Positions 618 to 53,060 of a stretch of 64,000 nucleotides of DNA are shown piece after piece. Source of the stretch: an uncultured Thermoprotei archaeon. GTDB taxonomy: Archaea > Thermoproteota > Thermoprotei > Thermofilales > B15-G2. The DNA lies in contig CBDUKN010000009.1 in the NCBI GenBank assembly GCA_965367815.1, forward strand, positions 1-64,000, written 5' to 3'. The position numbers were made by a program, and so were the translations under genes. Each line of letters opens with the position of its first letter. Position 1 is the stretch's first letter. The notes beneath the pieces were generated by a model, which saw only the letters and a list, made by a program, of their open reading frames with translations, ran no database searches and was not told the DNA's origin.

Positions 618-1901
618 TTAAGTAAGCAGATATTCTGATATACATGGTGCATTTTTTTCATATATTCTTCTTAGGTCTCTTTCTGTGAAGGGGAGGTAGC
701 GGTTTTGAAGCAATTTGAATTCCTTTGGAGGGAGTCTTCCCTGTAAAAGGTTTACGATTAATGGGGAGACTCCTTTGGCTGTCATGTAGGCTGCAAAAAA
801 TGCTCTTAAATCATATAGTCTAAATTGGCGGCCTAGAGTTTTCTTCATAGCTTCGTAGATTTCTTTTCTTAGTTCGTAGTCGTTGAAGGGGAAGAGCTTT
901 GCTTCCCATTTTGCTGTATTTAGTCCGAGGTTTAGTACTGCTGCTTTGAATTTTTTCACGAATTCTTGCCTAAATAGGAGGTATGTTTCCTTGAGGTACT
1001 TTGCAGTTGTTTTATGTAGAAATGTAATGAAGCTTCTTTTTGTCTCTGAGACTTTCCCTATAACTATTTTCCTATTTTTTAGGTCTATTTGATTGAGCTT
1101 AAGAGAGTATATTTCACTCGGCCTCAGGCCGGTTTCAGCAAGAAGAATAAAGTATGCTTGTGCTCCTAAGTGCTCTACTGCCCTAGCTACCTCAATTACC
1201 TCTTCTAGTGTAATTGCCTCTGCTACAATTTTTTCTCTTGGCTGCGGAGTTTTAAAGGCGTAGTAGAGAGCCTGGTCTTTGAGGACCTTTTTGATAAACA
1301 GCTTTAGTGCGGCCGCAGTGTGGTGTGCAACATACTCTGATTCTTCTTTTAACTCAAGAACATATTCCTCAAGGCGCTCAGGCGTAAGCTCCCACTCTAA
1401 ATTATTTAATGCTCTTAGGAGATACCGTAAATGGTCTTCTCTAGTTTTCTTTGATTTATCCGAGAGTATTTTCTTGAATTTCTCTACGTGCTTCTCAGTG
1501 ACTTTAACTACATGAGGTATTTCGTGGGCCAGATTCTCGTAAAACCATTTCGCAATAAGATACTTCAAGTACTTGTCTTCCTTGGCGACTTCAAGTATCT
1601 CCATAACTAATCCGTAGTCAACTACACCTTCCCTAATAGCCCCTAGGGCCTCCAGCTTTTTTCTGGCTCCCAGCAGCCTAGTGAACTCCTCTTCAGAAAG
1701 AAACTCAAGCAGCCTGGATAGCAACCTATCTGAAATTCTCTTTTCTCCCTTTTTGACACGATATAGATAAGACTTATCGTAGCCTAGCTGCTTATAGCCT
1801 ACTTTAGTTAAAACATAGTCAAAAATCCTCCTCCTATCATCTTCACCTATTCTGCTTAAGTCAACTTGGTCTCTCCAAGTAATTTTTCTTACTTTTTTCA
1901 T
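618..1901 (-). CDS. int: Tyrosine integrase (crenarchaeal tRNA-targeting type) with N-terminal HTH-like region
   Basis: AETGLRPSE (catalytic R), YDLRAF (YxxR variant), LLQGR, NRYL (catalytic Y); lies just downstream of a tRNA 3' end. Confidence 0.93.
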   Translation of the reverse strand: MKKVRKITWRDQVDLSRIGEDDRRRIFDYVLTKVGYKQLGYDKSYLYRVKKGEKRISDRLLSRLLEFLSEEEFTRLLGARKKLEALGAIREGVVDYGLVMEILEVAKEDKYLKYLIAKWFYENLAHEIPHVVKVTEKHVEKFKKILSDKSKKTREDHLRYLLRALNNLEWELTPERLEEYVLELKEESEYVAHHTAAALKLFIKKVLKDQALYYAFKTPQPREKIVAEAITLEEVIEVARAVEHLGAQAYFILLAETGLRPSEIYSLKLNQIDLKNRKIVIGKVSETKRSFITFLHKTTAKYLKETYLLFRQEFVKKFKAAVLNLGLNTAKWEAKLFPFNDYELRKEIYEAMKKTLGRQFRLYDLRAFFAAYMTAKGVSPLIVNLLQGRLPPKEFKLLQNRYLPFTERDLRRIYEKNAPCISEYLLT

Positions 1902-10449: not shown

Positions 10450-11274
10450 GTGATGTACGTGAAAGTACCACTATCCCTCATAGACTCCGGGCTGAGAGCC
10501 TTAGATATATTGTTTCCTCAAGGCTTCCCAAGAGGATCATTTATTCTAGTTTCAGGTGAAGCAGGAACAGGAAAAACAATATTTGTATATAACTTAACGA
10601 GAGCGTATTTAAAAAAGAGAGAAAAATGTATATTTATTTCACTAGATGAACCACCTTTTGTTATCGAGGAAAACATTGTCTCATCACCGGACAGCATTCC
10701 TCCAAAGTCTCTCACAATAATAGATTGTTTCAGTTTTAGGTCAAAATATCTACTATATTCAGGAAACAATGTGTCTACCAAACACTCAAATGTACTTTAT
10801 GTAAGTAATCCAAAGGATATTAAAGCTCTACAGAGACTTGTGCACTATACTGTAGAGAAATTCATGTCTATGAACAGAGGCTTAATAGTCATCGACTCTC
10901 TAACTGAAATGATTAGCCTATGCGATGCAAATTCATTTGTAGAGTTCGTTAAAACAATGCGCTCACTCTATGCGAGAAAACTCGGAATAACAGTCGTCGG
11001 CACACTTACTTTTGGAATAAAACTTCTTGAAGGCCTAGACGATCTATTGGACTATGTGGCCGACATAATCATCGACATGCGCTATGAGCCTGAGTATATG
11101 AGACAAGGACTTTTAGTAAGACAGCTTAGAGTAAGGAAAGCAAGAGGATGCCCGCATGACACACGGTGGCTTACATTTAGTGTAGAAAACGGCGAACTAT
11201 GTCCAGTGAACTTAATTTCTAATAAACATTACTTAAAAGTACCTGCTAGTAGAATAGATCCTCCTTTAGAATGA
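10450..11274 (+). CDS. Single-domain KaiC/RAD55-like ATPase
   Basis: SGLRALD, GEAGTGKT, IIDCF, IVIDSL, VRKARG. Confidence 0.88.
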   Translation: MMYVKVPLSLIDSGLRALDILFPQGFPRGSFILVSGEAGTGKTIFVYNLTRAYLKKREKCIFISLDEPPFVIEENIVSSPDSIPPKSLTIIDCFSFRSKYLLYSGNNVSTKHSNVLYVSNPKDIKALQRLVHYTVEKFMSMNRGLIVIDSLTEMISLCDANSFVEFVKTMRSLYARKLGITVVGTLTFGIKLLEGLDDLLDYVADIIIDMRYEPEYMRQGLLVRQLRVRKARGCPHDTRWLTFSVENGELCPVNLISNKHYLKVPASRIDPPLE

Positions 11275-13799
11275 GCTAATTCGTAAGTTTTACACGATAA
11301 TCCGTGCTCTTTTGCAATTTCTTCTAGATATTTTGCGTAGTTCTCGCTTTGAGTTGTAATGATAACCTGCTTCGAGAACTCTCTACTTCCAAGTAGTTTT
11401 CCTAAAGACTTTTTCAACTCTTCATCGATGTTAGGCAGTGGATCATCGAATATTATGAAATCTGCTGAATGGGGAGAAATTTTATTTAACGCAAAGACTA
11501 GCGAAAAAGCGAAGAGAATTTTTTGTCCATCGCTGAGAAACTGAATAGACGGAATTACTGCACCATCGCTGCGCTTTACGTAGAACATATACTTGTATCT
11601 ACCTTTCTTTTCTGCTTCAACAGCCTTAAGATTAATTTCTATTACATCTGGATGCACATAAATTTTTTCAAAAATAGAGTTTATTGTATTAATTATTTTA
11701 GTTATCGACTCATTTCTAATAACATCCTGTGCCTTAATATATGCTTCTTTAATTCTGGAAAACCTTTCAGCTAGCTCAGAGATTTTAGAATATTTTTCGG
11801 AGAGTTTACTGTATTCTTTTTCAAGTTCAGCAATAAGACCAAGCTTCTTTTTCGCCGATGAAATTTCTTTGGTGTAATAGTTAATTTCTTCAAGATATTT
11901 GTTTCTAAGCCTTTTAATTTCTATAAGCCTTTTATTTAGCGATTTTTTCTCATTAATTAATCTAACTCTCTCGGAAACTATAGTCTCTATATTCACTTCC
12001 TTTAACTCTAAGTCAAGCTTATCTAATTGCTCCTTTAAAGTCTCTATTTCTCTTTCTATTTTAGATATCTCATCATATTTACTTAAATAGCTTAATTTAT
12101 CTTCTATTTTAGATAATCTTCTTCGAAAACCGGAAAGAAAATTCCTCAAGTCATTGAGCTTATACTCTAATTCTTCTATTTCTTTATCAAGTTCATTTAT
12201 TCTCTCTTCTATTGCATCAATCTCGCTTTCAATACTACTCTTCAAAAGCCTTAATTCTTCCAATCTATTTATTTTTTCTGAAAGCTCCTCATATTTATTT
12301 AGTAGTTGTTTGTATTCTTCCATTTCAGCTAGTAGTTTTTCTCTTTTAATGAAAAGTTCTGATTTAGATTTAATTATTTCATTTAAATGTTGCTCTAAGT
12401 GCTCCTTTTCATTTTGAAGAATATCTTTACAGCATATAGGGCACTTAATGCGATCTTTTGACTTTAATTGACCCAGTATTTTTCGAATTAAAGCTATTCT
12501 ACAATCATCTTCCTTTAAGATATTATCTATTATACTCAACTCGTTTTCTATTTTCTTTAAATTCTTTTTAGCGTTTTCTATGTCGCCTATTTTAGCTAGA
12601 ATATGTGAGAATTCCTTCTCGGAGCTTTCAAGAAACTCTATCTCACTTATTACGTCTGATAATTGTGCTTGTTTTGAATCTTTAATAGCTTCCAGCTTAC
12701 TTTTCTGTCTTATAAGTTTACTTAATTCGCTTTGCAAATAAGATGATTTATTTTCTATACTGAAGTAGGCTTTTCTAAAGGTTTTAATTACCTCATCTAC
12801 ATTGTCTAAAGATATAGTTATTTTCTCTATTTTTTCAAGCTCATCTCCTAAGAGTAAGTCTGCAAGAAAGCCTGAGAGTTCAGCTTTAATACTCTCTAAT
12901 TGATATATTGCCTCCTCTATGATTTCTTCTTTCGACTGCCCTAGTGCTTTAAGATCTGCTTCTAGCTGGTGTTTTCTTCCGCTTAAATTTTCTAATTTTT
13001 TTATTAATTTTTCTTTTAATCTTTCTTTTTCTTTTATTTTACCATATATACTTGATATTTCGATTATTTTTTTATCAATTTCAGATATTTTCCCTAAGAT
13101 ATCTTTCTCTTCTTCATTAAGTTTGTTTATATTTTCTTTCAACTCATTTATTTTATGCTCATATAGCTTTATTTTTTGTATAATTTCATTTTTATTTAAA
13201 TAGCTAATATCTCTTTCTATTTGCTTCATTTTAAATGCAATATTGTTTTTTACTTCATCTATCTTCTTTACCGGTATACTAGCTGCTATTCTTCTGAATG
13301 CATCTATTCCAAGCATTTTATCTAAGATAATAGTCCTTCTTAAGGGTGAGCCGTAAGCAAGAGTTTCTAGGCTGCGGTGTCGAATTAGTATATAACGGAC
13401 AAAGTTTTCTAGAGATATTTTGAGCAATTCCTCACTTATTATTCTGTTTACTTGAGATGTTGTCGAAGCAATTTTTTGTCTTTCTTTGTAAAGAATACTT
13501 TTGAGAGATTTGTCTTTAAGCTTTTTCCTTTCTACTCGATATTCTACACCGTCTACTACGAAGTCTAATGCTATTCTAAAGTGATTGCTTATATTGTTTA
13601 TGTAGTCGTCAAGCTTAGCGCTTTTTTCTATATTTGTCTCATATGTTGCTCCGTAGAGCGCTAACTCAATAGCATTTAATATTGTAGACTTACCTACACC
13701 TACAGGACCCACTATTAGCGTCAGCTCTGAGGATAAGTCTAGTTTTATTGTTTCCGTGAAACATCTAAATCCATATATTTCAATTGATCTTAACAACAT
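11229..13799 (-). CDS. rkd4: Rad50/SMC-like coiled-coil ATPase, arcadin-4 by context
   Basis: GPVGVGKST Walker A, long coiled coils, central CPIC zinc hook, LSDGQ signature, IFDDP Walker B; last gene of the crenactin operon. Confidence 0.8.
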   Translation of the reverse strand: MLLRSIEIYGFRCFTETIKLDLSSELTLIVGPVGVGKSTILNAIELALYGATYETNIEKSAKLDDYINNISNHFRIALDFVVDGVEYRVERKKLKDKSLKSILYKERQKIASTTSQVNRIISEELLKISLENFVRYILIRHRSLETLAYGSPLRRTIILDKMLGIDAFRRIAASIPVKKIDEVKNNIAFKMKQIERDISYLNKNEIIQKIKLYEHKINELKENINKLNEEEKDILGKISEIDKKIIEISSIYGKIKEKERLKEKLIKKLENLSGRKHQLEADLKALGQSKEEIIEEAIYQLESIKAELSGFLADLLLGDELEKIEKITISLDNVDEVIKTFRKAYFSIENKSSYLQSELSKLIRQKSKLEAIKDSKQAQLSDVISEIEFLESSEKEFSHILAKIGDIENAKKNLKKIENELSIIDNILKEDDCRIALIRKILGQLKSKDRIKCPICCKDILQNEKEHLEQHLNEIIKSKSELFIKREKLLAEMEEYKQLLNKYEELSEKINRLEELRLLKSSIESEIDAIEERINELDKEIEELEYKLNDLRNFLSGFRRRLSKIEDKLSYLSKYDEISKIEREIETLKEQLDKLDLELKEVNIETIVSERVRLINEKKSLNKRLIEIKRLRNKYLEEINYYTKEISSAKKKLGLIAELEKEYSKLSEKYSKISELAERFSRIKEAYIKAQDVIRNESITKIINTINSIFEKIYVHPDVIEINLKAVEAEKKGRYKYMFYVKRSDGAVIPSIQFLSDGQKILFAFSLVFALNKISPHSADFIIFDDPLPNIDEELKKSLGKLLGSREFSKQVIITTQSENYAKYLEEIAKEHGLSCKTYELAHSKGGSILLAGTFK

Positions 13800-13986: not shown

Positions 13987-14817
13987 TTATCTACCTCTTT
14001 TGCTCAATACATTAAGCCAAGGATTATCTACAAGATAATCTGGTAACTCCTCATCAGATTCCCTAGACACTGACTTTGATAAACTAACTTCACTTACTCT
14101 TACCGTACTCAGCGCAGTTCTGCCTTTAATGTATTCTATTTCTTTTTCAAGAACTTTAAGCCTACTCAGTATTCTCTCTAGCTCCCCTGAAAAAGCAGCA
14201 CTCGAGCCAGCCGATACCTTAGAGACTTTATTTTCTATTTCTTGGACAATAGTATCCAATTTATCTAAATGCGATTTTATTAATGAAACCTCATCTATTA
14301 ATACCATTAATTTATCTTCAAGCTCTTTTATCTTTGTCTTGAGCTCTCGTATCTCAGATATTGTCTGGACCTTTTTACTTGAAAAAGAAGGAAAAGCTTC
14401 TTCTATTTTACCATGAGAATATATCAGTACACCTACACCACACTCCTTGAGAAGCCTTCCATCAATATATCTTGGTGAGTAAATGCCTTTGGGTAGAAGT
14501 AAGTAAACTTTATCTGCTAAACTAGCATATTTTGACGCTTTAGCTAAATAAGCTAAAATAGTACTTTTACTTATCTCTCCTTTCACTATTCTAGGAACAA
14601 GTACAAATATTATATTATTACCATCTCTTAGTATTAAATCTACATTCTTTACAGTATCTTCATCAAATACTTTTTCTGCTTCAGTAGTAGGAACTATACT
14701 CCATCCTTTACGTGATACAAAATATTCTTTCGCTAATTCCAATAATCTTTCCTTAGAAAAAAGTATGAACTCGTTTACCTCCACTTGTACCATCCCTCTC
14801 TTTTCTCCCAACTCCAC
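13987..14817 (-). CDS. rkd2: Arcadin-2 (crenactin-binding protein)
   Basis: Directly follows crenactin; globular N-domain, coiled coil, C-terminal DNPWLNVLSKR helix resembling the NEWVKILRSKR tail of Pyrobaculum arcadin-2. Confidence 0.82.
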   Translation of the reverse strand: MELGEKRGMVQVEVNEFILFSKERLLELAKEYFVSRKGWSIVPTTEAEKVFDEDTVKNVDLILRDGNNIIFVLVPRIVKGEISKSTILAYLAKASKYASLADKVYLLLPKGIYSPRYIDGRLLKECGVGVLIYSHGKIEEAFPSFSSKKVQTISEIRELKTKIKELEDKLMVLIDEVSLIKSHLDKLDTIVQEIENKVSKVSAGSSAAFSGELERILSRLKVLEKEIEYIKGRTALSTVRVSEVSLSKSVSRESDEELPDYLVDNPWLNVLSKRGR

Positions 14818-16031
14818 TCATAGTCTAATGGTACTGCAACGCTCCAGACTATACATCCCTTCCATACAGCATACTGAGGATCTACAGTGAGCTTTACTCC
14901 TGCATCGATATCAAATCTCTTTAAGAGCAGCTTAACTTTAATAGGAGCATCACACGCTACATCCTCGAGTCCTGGAGGAACTTTCCACATAAAGTTTCCT
15001 CCGCTCAAAATAACTTTCTTGTATACCTCTTCTTGTATTTCTAGAGATACTTTCTCAACCGATCTAACAATAGCTTCTCCTAAGTCTATTTCGCCGGGCA
15101 AGATATCGTCTCCAAGTCTTCCTTCCCTAATAGCAAATCCTCTCTTGTAGTAGCTGGCAAATATTTCGTGAGATGGATTAAACACTATTTCACCTATTAG
15201 AAACCTCATCCAGGCCTCCTTTTCTAGCTCAATACATATGGTAGTTCCAGGAAATCTATAAGATACTTTAAATCTCTCGGGATTTGCTTTAGCTTCAGTT
15301 ATGGCTTTATCTAGGTCTATTGGAACTAGCCCTATAAGCTCCTTTACTTTTCTGACAACAGTTTCTTCTCTAGCCAGATCAGAGTATCCAGCATCTCTTA
15401 GTATTTCTGCAGTTATCATATCGGCTTCAGCTCCACCTCTGTTTAAAACAGCAATAGCATCTGAAATAGCTCTGAGAGAAATTGGACAGATTTGCGTGTT
15501 TCCGTGACCCGACTCTACGACCACACACTTAGTTTCCTTATTGGCAATAGCAACTGCAAGAGGTTGAGGAATTATGCTAACGGCCCTTACCAAACCCGTC
15601 TCTTCATCTATTTTCTCATGAATTTCGAATATTTTTTCATACATATAGTTAGGAGCTACAGCCGAAAGTGCTGCCGTTACGCAGTATCCCTTAAAGTCGG
15701 GACCTAAAACTTTATACTTCATTAAACCGTACTTCGTTACTTCGTAGATTACCCTCCATGCTCTCACATCTTCCTTAGCTATAATACCGTCCTTCATAGG
15801 GTAAACGAGATTGCGCTGCACTTCTTCTTTCGTTCCAAGATAATCTCTATACTCTGGTCCAACTATTAGGTCTTTATCAATACCATAAAGTCTTCTAATC
15901 AGCTTATCTTCTATAAAGTATCCTGCATTTTCAATAATATCGGGTTTCTCCTTAATAGGACCAAATTTATAGAACCGCGTACCGTAGTCCTCGCCGAACG
16001 AATACTTCTTTTTATACTCTTCTATACTCAT
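14775..16031 (-). CDS. Crenactin (archaeal actin)
   Basis: FGEDYGT phosphate-1, YPMKDGII, VESGHGNTQ phosphate-2, LNRGG, VILSGGNF, PQYAVWKG. Confidence 0.96.
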   Translation of the reverse strand: MSIEEYKKKYSFGEDYGTRFYKFGPIKEKPDIIENAGYFIEDKLIRRLYGIDKDLIVGPEYRDYLGTKEEVQRNLVYPMKDGIIAKEDVRAWRVIYEVTKYGLMKYKVLGPDFKGYCVTAALSAVAPNYMYEKIFEIHEKIDEETGLVRAVSIIPQPLAVAIANKETKCVVVESGHGNTQICPISLRAISDAIAVLNRGGAEADMITAEILRDAGYSDLAREETVVRKVKELIGLVPIDLDKAITEAKANPERFKVSYRFPGTTICIELEKEAWMRFLIGEIVFNPSHEIFASYYKRGFAIREGRLGDDILPGEIDLGEAIVRSVEKVSLEIQEEVYKKVILSGGNFMWKVPPGLEDVACDAPIKVKLLLKRFDIDAGVKLTVDPQYAVWKGCIVWSVAVPLDYEWSWEKREGWYKWR

Positions 16032-48661: not shown

Positions 48662-48755
<94 letters not shown>

Positions 48756-48792
48756 TTTAAGAAAAAGAGATTTTTCTCCGATGTAAGTTTCC

Positions 48793-48829
48793 GGGTGTTG
48801 CCAAGTTAATGTGCCTGCAGGCAACGCCC
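48793..48829. repeat. Inverted repeat GGGTGTTGCC-N17-GGCAACGCCC
   Basis: 10-bp arms with one mismatch, directly upstream of the TTTATATA box of the integrase remnant. Confidence 0.8.
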
Positions 48830-48860
48830 TTTATATATGACTCTCTGATAATATCCCTGG

Positions 48861-49052
48861 ATGAAGGATTCTTGGAGAGACAGAGTAGACTTAGCTAAAA
48901 TAGACGACGAGACACGGTACCGGATACTCGACTACGTTTTAGCGAAAATAGGGTCGTACAGGGAGCTGGGCTGCGATTGAACCTACATCTACAGGCTGAA
49001 GACACGGAAGCCCAGAGTACCGGACAGCTTTCTGAAGAGGCTTCCCGAATAA
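48861..49052 (+). pseudogene. N-terminal fragment of an integrase homologous to 618-1901
   Basis: MKDSWRDRVDLAKIDDETRYRILDYVLAKIGSYRELGCD*TYIYRLK aligns with WRDQVDLSRIGEDDRRRIFDYVLTKVGYKQLGYDKSYLYRVK; in-frame TGA at 48978-48980; no catalytic domain. Confidence 0.9.
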
Positions 49053-49484
49053 GACCTCTGAGGCCACTTCACTGTGAGGGCTGGGAAAAAACACGGAGAA
49101 GCCTCAGGGCTCTCTGCTAGGCTTTACTCTGAGCACGTCTAAGAAGCCTTTATCGTGCAGTCGAGAGAGCAGCGCGTCAGCCTCCCTCCACTCGATCTTC
49201 ATCTCTCTTGAAAGAGAATTCACAGTGCAGAAACCCATTAAGGTGAGCTTAAGGTGCCTCTACTTCCTCTTCGCTCAGCTTCCTAAGCTGGGCGTTGATT
49301 CTCTGTGTGTCGGGAGTCTCCTGTAAAGTACCTGTAGAGGCTCCTGGAGATACTCTTCTCTCCTCCTTCTCCGTGAGCCTCCGCCTCCAAGAATCAAGTC
49401 CCTCTACCAGCAGCCTTATGGTTTAGTTCCTCGTTTTCTTTTCTCAGCTTGCTGAGTATTTTCTTGTACTGTACTATGAGAGCC

Positions 49485-49781
49485 CTATACTTTTCTTCCT
49501 GAGACCTCTTCTTGAGCCAGATCACCTGCCGCCACCTTTCTCCCGAGTATCTCTAGCCACGGGTTGTCCTGCACCCACGAAGGCAACTTGGGCTCCGAAG
49601 AGACCCCCGCTGCGGCGCCTTCTCTGCCGCGGAGGAAGTCCCTTATCTCGGCTAGGAGCCTGTTCTGCTCCTCTAGGAGCTGGTTCACTGCGGCTGCGAG
49701 CGAAAGCCCCCGTGTCCTCGCGTAGGCCTCGAGCCTCTCCTTAATGCTCCTAGAGACCTTGATAGTAGTATACTCAACCAC
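49485..49781 (-). CDS. RHH DNA-binding protein with an arcadin-2-like DNPW peptide
   Basis: YTTIKVS..IKERLE.YA...GLSL..AV..LL RHH pattern; LPSWVQDNPWLEILGRK; TTTTAA box upstream. Confidence 0.8.
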   Translation of the reverse strand: MVEYTTIKVSRSIKERLEAYARTRGLSLAAAVNQLLEEQNRLLAEIRDFLRGREGAAAGVSSEPKLPSWVQDNPWLEILGRKVAAGDLAQEEVSGRKV

Positions 49782-50112
49782 GGTAAAGGCTGTTGTTACT
49801 TAAAAGGTATATCGGAAGCATACCTGCTCTAGGAAGAAGAGTATGCCGTAAGTATACTGCTCAAAGTACTCTTCTAGGGTTCCGGGTCGGGGAGATAATT
49901 AAGGAGAGAGAGCCTGAGGCCCTCCTCCACTCTAGGAGGAGAGCGGTTCCCAGCAGGAGCACTGTACTATATGTAATGCTGACCTAGTGACACTAGGCTT
50001 CTTCGCACTCCACTGGGTTTACATGCTCACGAAACGAGCACTTCAAACAGCACAAACAACGATAGATATGCTTATATAGTGCTGGACATAGTGTTAGCGC
50101 AGGGAGCCCGGC

Positions 50113-51090: not shown

Positions 51091-51369
51091 TCACTTTTTA
51101 CTTCTGAGTCTGCGTTCAAGCAATACCACCCTTCTGGAGTTAATGTCTACTTTTGCTCTAAGTTCATCTATAGCTAGCTCTAATTTCCTAACTTTCTTAT
51201 CTAGCTCTTCTAAGCTCGGGCGCCTTTTTCTACTATGAACATACTCTTTAAGAGCACAGAGTATTACGGCGTGAACAGTTAATCCCTCCTCCTCAGCTAT
51301 TTTTTGAAGACTCTTGTACAGTTCTTTAGGCATATTTACGGGATACCTTACTCTGCTCACACTAAACAT
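51091..51369 (-). CDS. Arc/RHH regulator with C-terminal coiled coil
   Basis: RYPVNMPKELYKSLQKIAEEEGLTVHAVI..ALKEYV + heptad repeats. Confidence 0.8.
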   Translation of the reverse strand: MFSVSRVRYPVNMPKELYKSLQKIAEEEGLTVHAVILCALKEYVHSRKRRPSLEELDKKVRKLELAIDELRAKVDINSRRVVLLERRLRSKK

Positions 51370-51975: not shown

Positions 51976-52455
51976 GTGCTCCTGCTAGTGCTCGACGTCT
52001 CTAAGGGCCCAGGCGGCACTGTTTTCGCAGTCATAGTCGTCGAGGAAGGAAGCTATAGAAAACTAAGGTCAATAATCAGTAGCTGGATCAAACACTATAA
52101 GGACTTGCCCAGTAGACGAAGAAGAAAATATTTGCTTGTTTTTGAAAGAAAATTTAATAAAATTAAAGACATGTTGTATTGCTATGGATGTTTTACTAGA
52201 TTTGATAGTGTTTTAAGGATTATTGATTTATTTGCTGGTAAGTCAAAGTTAATTATTGTCGACGATAAGTTTTACACGCTTATCAAAAGCAAATATGGCG
52301 GTAAAGTCGTGGCAGAGGGGAAAGCAAAGCCCTATTATTCAGCATTTATTTTACTCGCCGATAATTTAGCTAACTTAGTGAGAATTAAACTAAGTAAAGC
52401 GAAGTCTACTCTAAACAAATATAAGATACTCGAAGAATACAGGAAGAAGAAATGA
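51976..52455 (+). CDS. Predicted RNase H-fold protein, DUF3800-like
   Basis: hhhhD.S (LVLDVS), H..DL, IIVDD, hhhAD..AN (ILLADNLAN); TTTATAAA box upstream. Confidence 0.65.
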   Translation: MLLLVLDVSKGPGGTVFAVIVVEEGSYRKLRSIISSWIKHYKDLPSRRRRKYLLVFERKFNKIKDMLYCYGCFTRFDSVLRIIDLFAGKSKLIIVDDKFYTLIKSKYGGKVVAEGKAKPYYSAFILLADNLANLVRIKLSKAKSTLNKYKILEEYRKKK

Positions 52456-52557
52456 CCCCTCACTCAGCGGGCCCATCGGACCCCCAGCTCATCTACACAT
52501 CGCCAGGGTCGCCTCCGCCCGCATCATGCCCCGGGGCCCATCGGGCACAAAGCCCTC
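52453..52557 (-). ncRNA. Candidate structured GC-rich RNA convergent with the DUF3800-like gene
   Basis: Minus-strand TTTTTATA at 52581-52588; stems GTGCCC/GGGCAT, GCGGGC/GCCCGC, GACCCTGGC/GCTGGGGGTC; 11-nt direct repeat; pyrimidine tail. Confidence 0.6.
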
Positions 52558-52790
52558 AAACACTATCTCGCCGCAAACGATATAAAAATTACGTTTTAAG
52601 CAAAAAGTATTGTTTCTCACGAAGCCTCTCCTTTATCTTTAATTGTTTGCTAGCCGTCAGCACACATGCAGCATATGAGGCTATTTTCTTACTGCGGGAA
52701 CGTCCGCTCTTGTGCCAGGTTTTCGCTTATGTTCGGGTTTATAAGTCTCAGCTGAAGCCGCTGTGAGGAAAGTAGACGGCGGGTGAGACT

Positions 52791-53060
52791 TTGAGGTGTT
52801 TCCGCCTAGACAGGCCCTGCGCCTTTAGAGACCAGAAAGGCTTCTGCCAGTTCAGCTCTCAGGTGATCACCGAGGACTGTCCTGAAGACTGCCCATATCT
52901 CTGGAGACAGTTCTTCGGGAAGAAAAGTAGCAGCAGACTGCACAGTTCTCTGCGTATACGAGCTCCCAGACGAGTGCCCGAAGAAACGCCGCCTCCTAGA
53001 AAAGGCTCTGAGAAAATGAAAAATACCCTTTTATTCAAAGTTTTCAGTATTTTGCTATAA
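52791..53060 (+). CDS. Small Cys-rich hypothetical protein, possibly frameshifted or decayed
   Basis: TTTATAA box and GGTGA RBS; five Cys in the first 34 aa. Confidence 0.45.
   Translation: MRCFRLDRPCAFRDQKGFCQFSSQVITEDCPEDCPYLWRQFFGKKSSSRLHSSLRIRAPRRVPEETPPPRKGSEKMKNTLLFKVFSILL

Follow-up and report, generated by a model that had tools for sequence, protein, structure and literature searches.

The window analysed here is a stretch of 64,000 nucleotides (nt) from an uncultured Thermoprotei archaeon of the order Thermofilales (contig CBDUKN010000009.1, positions 1 to 64,000; contig C9 of genome G000 in our labelling). On its reverse strand, at 49485..49781, the window possesses an open reading frame (ORF) for a protein of 98 amino acids (aa) of probable ribbon-helix-helix (RHH) type. 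Residues 66-82 of this protein, hereafter the RHH-tail protein, are read here as a true copy of the C-terminal module of arcadin-2, the tail family whose known partner is the actin-like crenactin. The tail is probably a crenactin-groove binder on a DNA-bound, ParR-like adaptor that links the DNA of a mobile element to host crenactin; a role in segregation itself is put forward with less assurance. The features that carry this reading are:

13987..14817 (-), arcadin-2, 276 aa, overlapping the 3' end of the crenactin gene; tail at ~13996-14046, tail profile match at 13990-14052
14775..16031 (-), crenactin, 418 aa, proposed partner of the tail (Pfam Actin, 49.3 bits)
49485..49781 (-), RHH-coiled coil-linker-tail gene, a derived copy, 98 aa (ORF; RHH profiles; AlphaFold2 model; alignment)
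49536..49586 (-), arcadin-2-type tail LPSWVQDNPWLEILGRK, predicted crenactin-groove helix (tail model; co-fold contacts)

The tail, its carriers and crenactin

The tail LPSWVQDNPWLEILGRK aligns without gaps to LPDYLVDNPWLNVLSKR of the chromosomal arcadin-2, which is followed by two further residues (GR); counted from the two strings, 8 of 17 positions are identical. When the 2.45-Mb host genome (37 contigs, 38.6% GC, 99.4% complete) is translated in six frames, the tetrapeptide DNPW appears five times, three of them in an LPx[FYW]xxDNPWLxxL context near an ORF end. A tail hidden Markov model (HMM) of 32 arcadin-2 tails, none from this genome, was scored against its 43,902 six-frame stop-to-stop segments. 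Five segments match at E 3.9e-10 to 1e-7, among them the RHH-tail protein (32.6 bits, E 1e-7), and the next best has E 1.1; a profile search of the contigs also places the tail at 49536-49586. Chance similarity is ruled out by the DNPW counts together with this gap in the HMM scores. The preliminary description of the window had matched residues 66-82 to the extreme C-terminus of arcadin-2, and the match is real; in the window copy, however, the motif is not C-terminal, since 16 residues come after it.

The 32 tails were taken from 61 tail rows fetched. All non-arcadin carriers were left out, as were the near-identical L003, L014-L016, L018-L025 and L052, the first tail of L033, which has two, and the atypical L062 (393 aa). 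A second profile, A3, has 30 rows, the 20-residue rows L050 and L064 being additionally omitted.

The five segments of the host genome that match the tail HMM belong to:

C9 (window), arcadin-2
C9 (window), the RHH-tail protein
C13:52950-53291, C2H2 zinc-finger protein
C8:49504-50058, Sigma70_r4/HTH_23-type helix-turn-helix (HTH) protein
C27:20182-20598, winged-helix-like protein

All non-arcadin carriers with an assignable domain, in this genome and elsewhere, are small DNA-binding proteins. Pfam was run on 13 of them and the remainder classed by eye or from an alignment (A6); zf-C2H2 and Sigma70_r4/HTH_23 exceed the Pfam cut-off, and the winged-helix and MazE/AbrB-like assignments are weak. 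Twelve aligned proteins of the HTH-tail family are 30-37% identical, with invariant columns in the HTH and in the tail (P166, N172, P173, W174), plus a single Leu of the middle region (L125). The winged-helix tail proteins are ~117-133 aa long. RHH-like tail proteins form a carrier class of their own and sit with a second gene, ORF-B, described below. One carrier is plasmid-borne: this basic protein of 132 aa is encoded on a second replicon of 31.5 kb and shows 100% identity to a hypothetical protein of plasmid NC_008696.1. Tail genes are found in the chromosome (two of them within RadA-paralogue/SWIM operons), on a plasmid and in the cassette of an integrative element. The chromosomal paralogues are conserved across genera in housekeeping contexts.

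The two operons mentioned, C13:50501-53291 with the C2H2-tail gene and C27:18666-22394 with the winged-helix-tail gene, are similar: each encodes a RadA paralogue (316 and 329 aa), a protein judged by eye to be of SWIM type and a further protein of ~303-316 aa, and they may represent a crenactin-linked DNA-transaction module. Outside the class, a 40-aa ORF at 1509-1631 (+) of L045 (G248:C2:16400-19400) consists of little more than the tail (..ELPAYFHDNPWIEILRRLG..); it could be a stand-alone peptide or a fragment.

The RHH-tail protein itself is related to four clusters of a large protein database, all metagenomic and 54-74% identical, in which the motif is kept. Over these five homologues, L66, P67, S68, W69, D72, N73, P74, W75, L76, I78, L79 and K82 are invariant, and the linker varies while the tail stays fixed. 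The four metagenomic proteins stop right after the motif (..EILGRKGGGR or ..KILENKR), and their helix is 16 residues longer. The RHH assignment is weak in each library but consistent across them: Pfam RHH_1 gives E 0.0069 (16.8 bits, under the 20.5-bit cut-off), PDB profiles match residues 2-40 weakly (MazE7, E 0.0039; CopG, E 0.031), and a PHROG Arc-like repressor family matches the homologue P0002 with a similarly weak E 0.0055. The AlphaFold2 model (mean predicted local distance difference test, pLDDT, 68.8) has an extended stretch at residues 4-10 and helices at 11-23, 28-56, 68-71 and 74-84, with a low-confidence linker at 56-63. A second RHH protein of the window, at 51091-51369 (-), has 92 aa, a Pfam RHH_1 score of 27.4 bits, a coiled-coil C-terminus and host-like GC; its build is that of the RHH-tail protein without the tail.

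With arcadin-2 the RHH-tail protein shares the C-terminal helix behind an unconserved linker. The arcadin-2 N-terminal domain and the adjacency to crenactin are absent; the N-terminus is RHH-like, and the gene lies 33 kb from crenactin in a GC-rich island, hence it is not an arcadin-2. The chromosomal arcadin-2 of the window weakly matches, in its N-domain and its tail, an ORF of 198 aa that lies beside crenactin in another family. The arcadin-2 gene is followed by an ORF of 856 aa (11229-13799), judged Rad50-like by eye. This order of crenactin, arcadin-2 and Rad50-like gene is the layout of the arcade cluster. In the relative L033 (G153:C1:479400-481700) arcadin-2 has two tandem tails, ..LPSFARDNPWLRILS.. 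and ..LPSFARDNPWLDFLS.., 34 residues apart.

Co-occurrence of tail and crenactin was surveyed in 401 genomes of the phylum, with crenactin orthologues in 140 and none found in 261; related genomes are not independent, and the counts carry no p-value weight. They are:

Tail profile A3, E<=1e-4, 125 genomes: both 124; tail only 1 (G301); crenactin only 16; neither 260
Strict pattern DNPW[LVIMF]x[LVIMF][LF], 94 genomes: both 88; tail only 6; crenactin only 52; neither 255

The profile therefore matches 124 of the 140 crenactin-positive and one of the 261 crenactin-negative genomes. Family f6, perhaps Pyrobaculum/Thermoproteus-like by our guess, provides 12 of the 16 crenactin-only genomes; in the class-level sample f6 tails score lower, and 15 of 16 f6 genomes match at E<=0.01. 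An LPxF context is missing from all six pattern-only matches, of which four are in open frames of 31-95 aa and two are without a motif-bearing ORF of at least 60 aa; the reversed pattern, used as control, matched six genomes. In families where presence is only partial, tail and crenactin fall in identical sets of genomes: 8 of 17 in f21, 5 of 6 in f24 and 1 of 8 in f27. Of the 61 genomes of the class, those of the crenactin-less families f8 and f10 have no tail match (0/3 and 0/9), and 48 of the other 49 have tails. Outside the class almost all genomes have a single tail match, arcadin-2; in the order of the host genome most have 2-5. It had been cautioned at the outset that similar tails on other archaeal proteins might point to a partner other than crenactin. 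Such tails do exist, but 124 of 125 tail genomes have crenactin, and since the other tail proteins are nearly all found in crenactin-bearing genomes, crenactin is strengthened as the shared partner and is by far the best candidate.

The tail also seems to follow, imperfectly, the arcadin-2 variant of its own lineage. In f6, arcadin-2 ends in ..NEWVR[IL]LR.., and NEW is present in all three other f6 carriers fetched (L087, L088, L090); in G051 both arcadin-2 and another carrier read NEWVRLLR. The ESCRT-type protein CdvA, which may have a similar C-terminus, was set aside as a partner: Snf7 and CdvA profiles have no match in the host genome (99.4% complete), and the CdvA tail itself was not compared.

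Binding of the tail to crenactin would be in keeping with published biochemistry on arcadin-2. According to excerpts of the study of Pyrobaculum calidifontis arcadin-2 (PMC5173319), the last 17 residues depolymerise crenactin filaments, the peptide alone turns crenactin monomeric, and crenactin and arcadin-2 form a tight 1:1 complex (Kd 31 nM). The same excerpts describe a 1.6 A crystal structure with the peptide in the hydrophobic groove of crenactin, Trp making key contacts, in the orientation of ParR on ParM. The P. calidifontis peptide is known here by this description, its letters not being part of our comparison.

Co-folding of the peptide with crenactin, proposed in the preliminary description, was carried out with crenactin (18-row alignment) and residues 47-98 of the RHH-tail protein (5 rows) in three runs with three controls. 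Each run scores 0.88, the best of the three controls 0.00; by comparison, 58 of 80 solved complexes attain the mark, as do 2 of 110 mismatched pairs. At least 64% of the contacts agree between runs, with a partner pLDDT of at least 59. The tail is placed in the hydrophobic groove: residues 65-84 contact crenactin residues 162-167, 391-407 and their neighbours, with W75 and L79 having the least expected error. We take these stretches to be the actin cleft, counting the invariant Q156 as actin Q137 and presuming the residue numbers of the cleft. The Q137 equivalence is given in excerpts of PMC5173319.

The two-gene cassette and its copy in the window

The gene lies in an island at ~48.6-50.1 kb with 47-54% GC, versus 31-42% in the flanks. 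Besides the tail gene, the island and its immediate surroundings comprise:

48662..48753 (+), tRNA gene with intron-like insert, probable integration target (Rfam tRNA at 48687-48753, 31.5 bits)
48861..49048 (+), integrase N-terminal remnant, ~62 codons, in-frame stop at codon 40 (DNA identity 87% to the start of the C8 integrase)
49038..49537 (-), ORF-B pseudogene, cassette gene 2 (tblastn pieces in three frames)
49485..49535 (-), 16-codon read-through and stop after a frameshift just past K82 (the neighbouring frame reads KGGGR-stop)
49799..49857 (-), promoter and candidate operator: TATA-like CTTTTAAG at 49799-49806, hexamer-N5-hexamer units at 49807-49823 and 49841-49857

The tRNA is missed by ARAGORN and has its insert in the D-arm region; read by eye, its anticodon loop is TCT (Arg). 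Positions 48704-49048 match C8:102014-102360, elsewhere in this genome, with 87% identity over 348 nt; the C8 stretch comprises a tRNA 3' half and the start of an intact integrase gene (C8:102173-103441, 422 aa; Pfam Phage_integrase, 33.5 bits). From the end of the remnant to the tail gene there are 437 nt, in agreement with the ~0.4 kb reported earlier. That C8 region (C8:102014-110923, L082) is a second GC-rich integrated element beside a tRNA; it reaches the contig end, is without a tail gene, and contains, besides the integrase, a primase-polymerase (PriCT_1, 47.3 bits) and a 501-aa winged-helix protein.

A metagenome scan for the RHH-tail gene gave nine loci (L073-L081). In seven of these (L073, L074, L076-L080) the gene overlaps the start of ORF-B, which has 363-375 aa where complete. 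ORF-B is present in 6 of the 61 class genomes including the host, and whole copies (342-374 aa) at G370:C134, G340:C29 and G340:C19 all have an RHH-like tail gene directly upstream. By comparison with these loci, the window ORF is the slightly decayed first gene of a conserved two-gene mobile-element cassette with ORF-B. The one-gene system that had been envisaged is not borne out, ORF-B lying downstream in seven metagenome and three genome loci; the element-borne nature of the gene is, by the integrase remnant at the tRNA and by the cassette neighbours. At L107, L108 and L112 (G340:C29, G402:C34, G340:C19) another small RHH-like gene lies downstream of ORF-B, followed in L108 and L112 by a gene for a zinc-ribbon protein of 347-371 aa; taken together, these genes resemble a section of an integrated virus or plasmid.

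Upstream of the cassette, L077-L080 show the C-terminal part of one conserved large protein, which in L078 matches DUF87/HerA (30.9 bits), an ATPase type of a different class from actin-like NTPases. An NYN protein is found in L078 and a DUF5131 protein in L073. These neighbours point to a mobile element. A degenerate tail pattern has a single match in viral contigs (L115), outside ORFs of at least 60 aa on that strand and beside a methyltransferase-like gene; it is taken as chance. In the species genomes the RHH homologue has two matches only, Cellulomonas L071 and L072, themselves selected with the pattern SWVQDNPW; in L071 a hydrophobic stretch comes after the match, which is likewise taken as chance.

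The confident model of ORF-B (pLDDT 84.1) shows long helices over residues 10-107 and a winged helix, with an unassigned alpha/beta domain at the C-terminus. Foldseek matches are of the MarR winged-helix type at E>=4.5e-3, together with low-probability nuclease/endonuclease matches. Against toxin families there is no match; Pfam HSDR_N_2 (E 0.0049) stands alone, and PHROGs give a sigma-factor family for L074 (E 0.0097) and nothing for the ORF-B of L107.

Two GTATAC-N5-GTATAC units precede the RHH start in six metagenome loci (L073-L078), spaced by 32-34 nt in four of them and by 55 nt in L078. The second unit abuts the TATA-like CTTTTAAG, ~17 nt ahead of the GTG start; in L079, which is more divergent, another palindrome occupies this position. 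An arrangement of this kind would be expected of an autoregulating RHH protein or of a small centromere. In the window, three of the four hexamers have one mismatch each. A bacterial-type promoter and terminator scan is uninformative in an archaeon.

The window copy is probably a relic in this genome, as judged from its decay, which makes present-day function here doubtful. Aligned with its four homologues, the tail gene has a 16-aa in-frame deletion between two LLEEQ repeats. The neighbouring frame at the frameshift reads KGGGR-stop, the ending of P0002. ORF-B is broken into tblastn pieces at 49537-49424 (residues 15-52), 49422-49231 (86-151) and 49253-49038 (144-215), the last 90% identical to L074; residues ~53-85 are gone, the match ends at ~215 of 375, and stops occur within it. 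Among the sequencing runs listed with the island there is none of RNA; the DNA runs X1 and X2 both contain it. One contig of X1 spans 48943-49621 without gaps, which shows that the frameshift is not peculiar to this assembly, although X1 may be the source sample; in X2 none of the contigs listed bridges 49522-49549.

One more GC-rich patch lies at 52400-53000 (49-51% GC) and might be a structured RNA or another remnant. It has no Rfam match at E<=0.1, no convincing ORF and no copy elsewhere in the genome.

Weighing the proposed adaptor against its alternatives

For the intact protein the following mechanism is proposed. The N-terminal RHH domain would bind, probably, the two GTATAC-N5-GTATAC palindromes over its own promoter, and the long helix or coiled coil would multimerise the protein. 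A disordered Gly/Ala/Ser linker would join the coiled coil to the tail, a short amphipathic helix predicted to dock in the hydrophobic groove of host crenactin, the seat of the D-loop of the next subunit in a filament. Being multimeric and DNA-bound, the protein would expose several tails, to which crenactin could attach either as a monomer or by the filament end whose groove is free. The actin would be supplied by the host, the cassette encoding no NTPase. The ParR analogy drawn in the preliminary description fits this architecture of RHH, coiled coil, linker and groove-binding helix with an operator upstream; binding of the operator by the RHH domain and any segregation or positioning role stay presumptive.

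Several observations weigh against the adaptor. ORF-B has no NTPase or actin match in library searches, in keeping with the earlier remark that no element NTPase adjoins the gene, and the cassette is thus without one. ORF-B finds no match in known plasmids and phages, nor does the RHH-tail protein find a homologue in viral contigs. The candidate operator has four half-sites only, not a long iteron array as in parC. A like complex has already been solved, and the co-fold may therefore be memory; it shows likeness, not binding by this copy. The free arcadin-2 peptide is published to depolymerise crenactin, and the tail might accordingly sequester monomers instead of riding filaments. Covariation is imperfect in G174 (arcadin-2 with DNEW, two other carriers with NPW), and G301 (family f32) is the sole crenactin-negative genome with a tail-profile match (E 9.7e-6, by score alone). 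Finally, the window copy has 16 residues after its motif, together with its deletion, degenerate operator hexamers, broken ORF-B and truncated integrase.

The flaws of the window copy bear first on its own state. Regardless of the role of the intact protein, we consider it an even call whether the window copy is an inert relic that no longer functions in this organism. The frameshift after K82, the 16-aa deletion, the three mutated operator hexamers, the ORF-B fragments in three frames and an integrase of ~62 codons with an in-frame stop all speak for inertness. Yet the ORF is still open, every family-invariant residue of RHH and tail is kept, the TATA-like box remains, and the arcadin-2 of the relative L033 has a tail 46 residues before its C-terminus, so that an internal position may be tolerated.

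The tail protein would be a crenactin antagonist if it sequestered monomers or capped filaments, perturbing host shape or division, with the RHH domain serving autoregulation only. The peptide of arcadin-2 alone depolymerises crenactin and makes it monomeric, according to excerpts of PMC5173319; the groove is buried in filaments, which leaves monomers or one filament end within reach; and the operator overlaps the promoter, as in plain autoregulators. We nevertheless regard this as unlikely, because the other assignable carriers all pair the tail with a DNA-binding domain, often via a coiled coil, for which an inhibitor has no need, and because chromosomal paralogues conserved in housekeeping contexts make poor anti-host weapons. 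Sequence alone does not decide between segregation of DNA and disturbance of the cytoskeleton as the effect of the intact protein.

Very unlikely in our view is a self-contained regulatory or toxin-antitoxin-like module of RHH-tail protein and ORF-B, in which the tail binds ORF-B or another non-crenactin partner: a small RHH gene overlapping a larger downstream gene under a palindromic operator is the classic antitoxin layout, and the C-terminal domain of ORF-B has faint nuclease-like matches (HSDR_N_2; Foldseek endonucleases), but ORF-B matches no toxin family, does not adjoin the C2H2, HTH and winged-helix tail genes of the host genome or the plasmid gene where neighbours were read, and occurs in 6 of 61 class genomes versus 48 of 61 for tails. 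Tail and crenactin, moreover, co-occur almost perfectly, and crenactin is the sole experimentally known partner of the tail family in excerpts of PMC5173319. What counts against both the antagonist and the self-contained module is the presence of the tail on DNA-binding domains at many chromosomal places that lack ORF-B.

Should mobile elements segregate by way of host actin, theirs would be the first partition system in archaea that is actin-based and parasitises its host, as well as a direct clue to DNA movement in cells without FtsZ and ESCRT. The adaptor would extend the ParR/ParM principle to an element that supplies the adaptor alone. Crenactin is the structurally closest known relative of eukaryotic F-actin. 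Its role, and how division and DNA segregation proceed without FtsZ or ESCRT in Thermoproteales-type archaea, are still called unclear in excerpts of recent reviews (PMC7617429, PMC10936438). The sole experimentally defined crenactin-binding peptide appears here as a portable module on chromosomal, plasmid-borne and element-borne small DNA-binding proteins, which points to a DNA-linked role of crenactin and makes its function testable. More tentatively, and in our view less likely than not, crenactin might serve Thermoproteales-type archaea as the track or motor common to a DNA-handling network, a single portable groove-binding helix having been grafted onto at least five kinds of DNA-binding domain, and elements might segregate by hijacking host actin without an NTPase of their own. 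In the parts of the arcadin/crenactin literature covered we found no description of arcadin-2-type tails on DNA-binding proteins; supplements are outside this scope, and an earlier mention is possible.

Comparison with known systems

Among the closest known systems is the type II partition system ParR-parC-ParM of plasmid R1, and also AlfB-AlfA. The cassette would resemble these in having a small, probable RHH adaptor, a flexible C-terminal helix predicted to enter the groove of an actin-like protein, and repeats over the promoter of the adaptor itself. The RHH-tail cassette differs in having no actin-like NTPase gene, the partner being presumably host crenactin, and in having two palindrome pairs, not the ten iterons of a many-iteron centromere. 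ORF-B is without counterpart in ParR-parC-ParM, and the RHH-tail protein shows no sequence relation to ParR other than through the RHH fold class.

RHH antitoxin/toxin operons resemble the cassette in gene order, gene overlap and palindromic operator over the promoter. In contrast to these, the downstream ORF-B has 340-375 aa with coiled coil and winged helix and belongs to no toxin family, and the upstream protein bears a tail from a family with crenactin as its known partner. Eukaryotic groove binders (WH2 domains, thymosin beta-4, gelsolin) likewise place short helices in the hydrophobic cleft of actin, but their sequences have no relation to the tail, and they are not known to be joined to DNA-binding domains. 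WH2 domains recur as portable modules on many otherwise unrelated proteins. The thymosin peptide binds actin in the reverse orientation, as stated in excerpts of PMC5173319.

With arcadin-2 of the P. calidifontis arcade cluster (Izore et al. 2016) the RHH-tail protein has in common the module LPx[FYW]xx[DNEG]N[PE]W[LVI]xxL behind an unconserved linker and its presence in the same genomes; it differs in possessing an RHH-like domain in place of the arcadin-2 N-terminal domain, in its position away from crenactin and in being borne by a mobile element. By analogy, the RHH-tail protein would work like ParR and share only its tail with arcadin-2.

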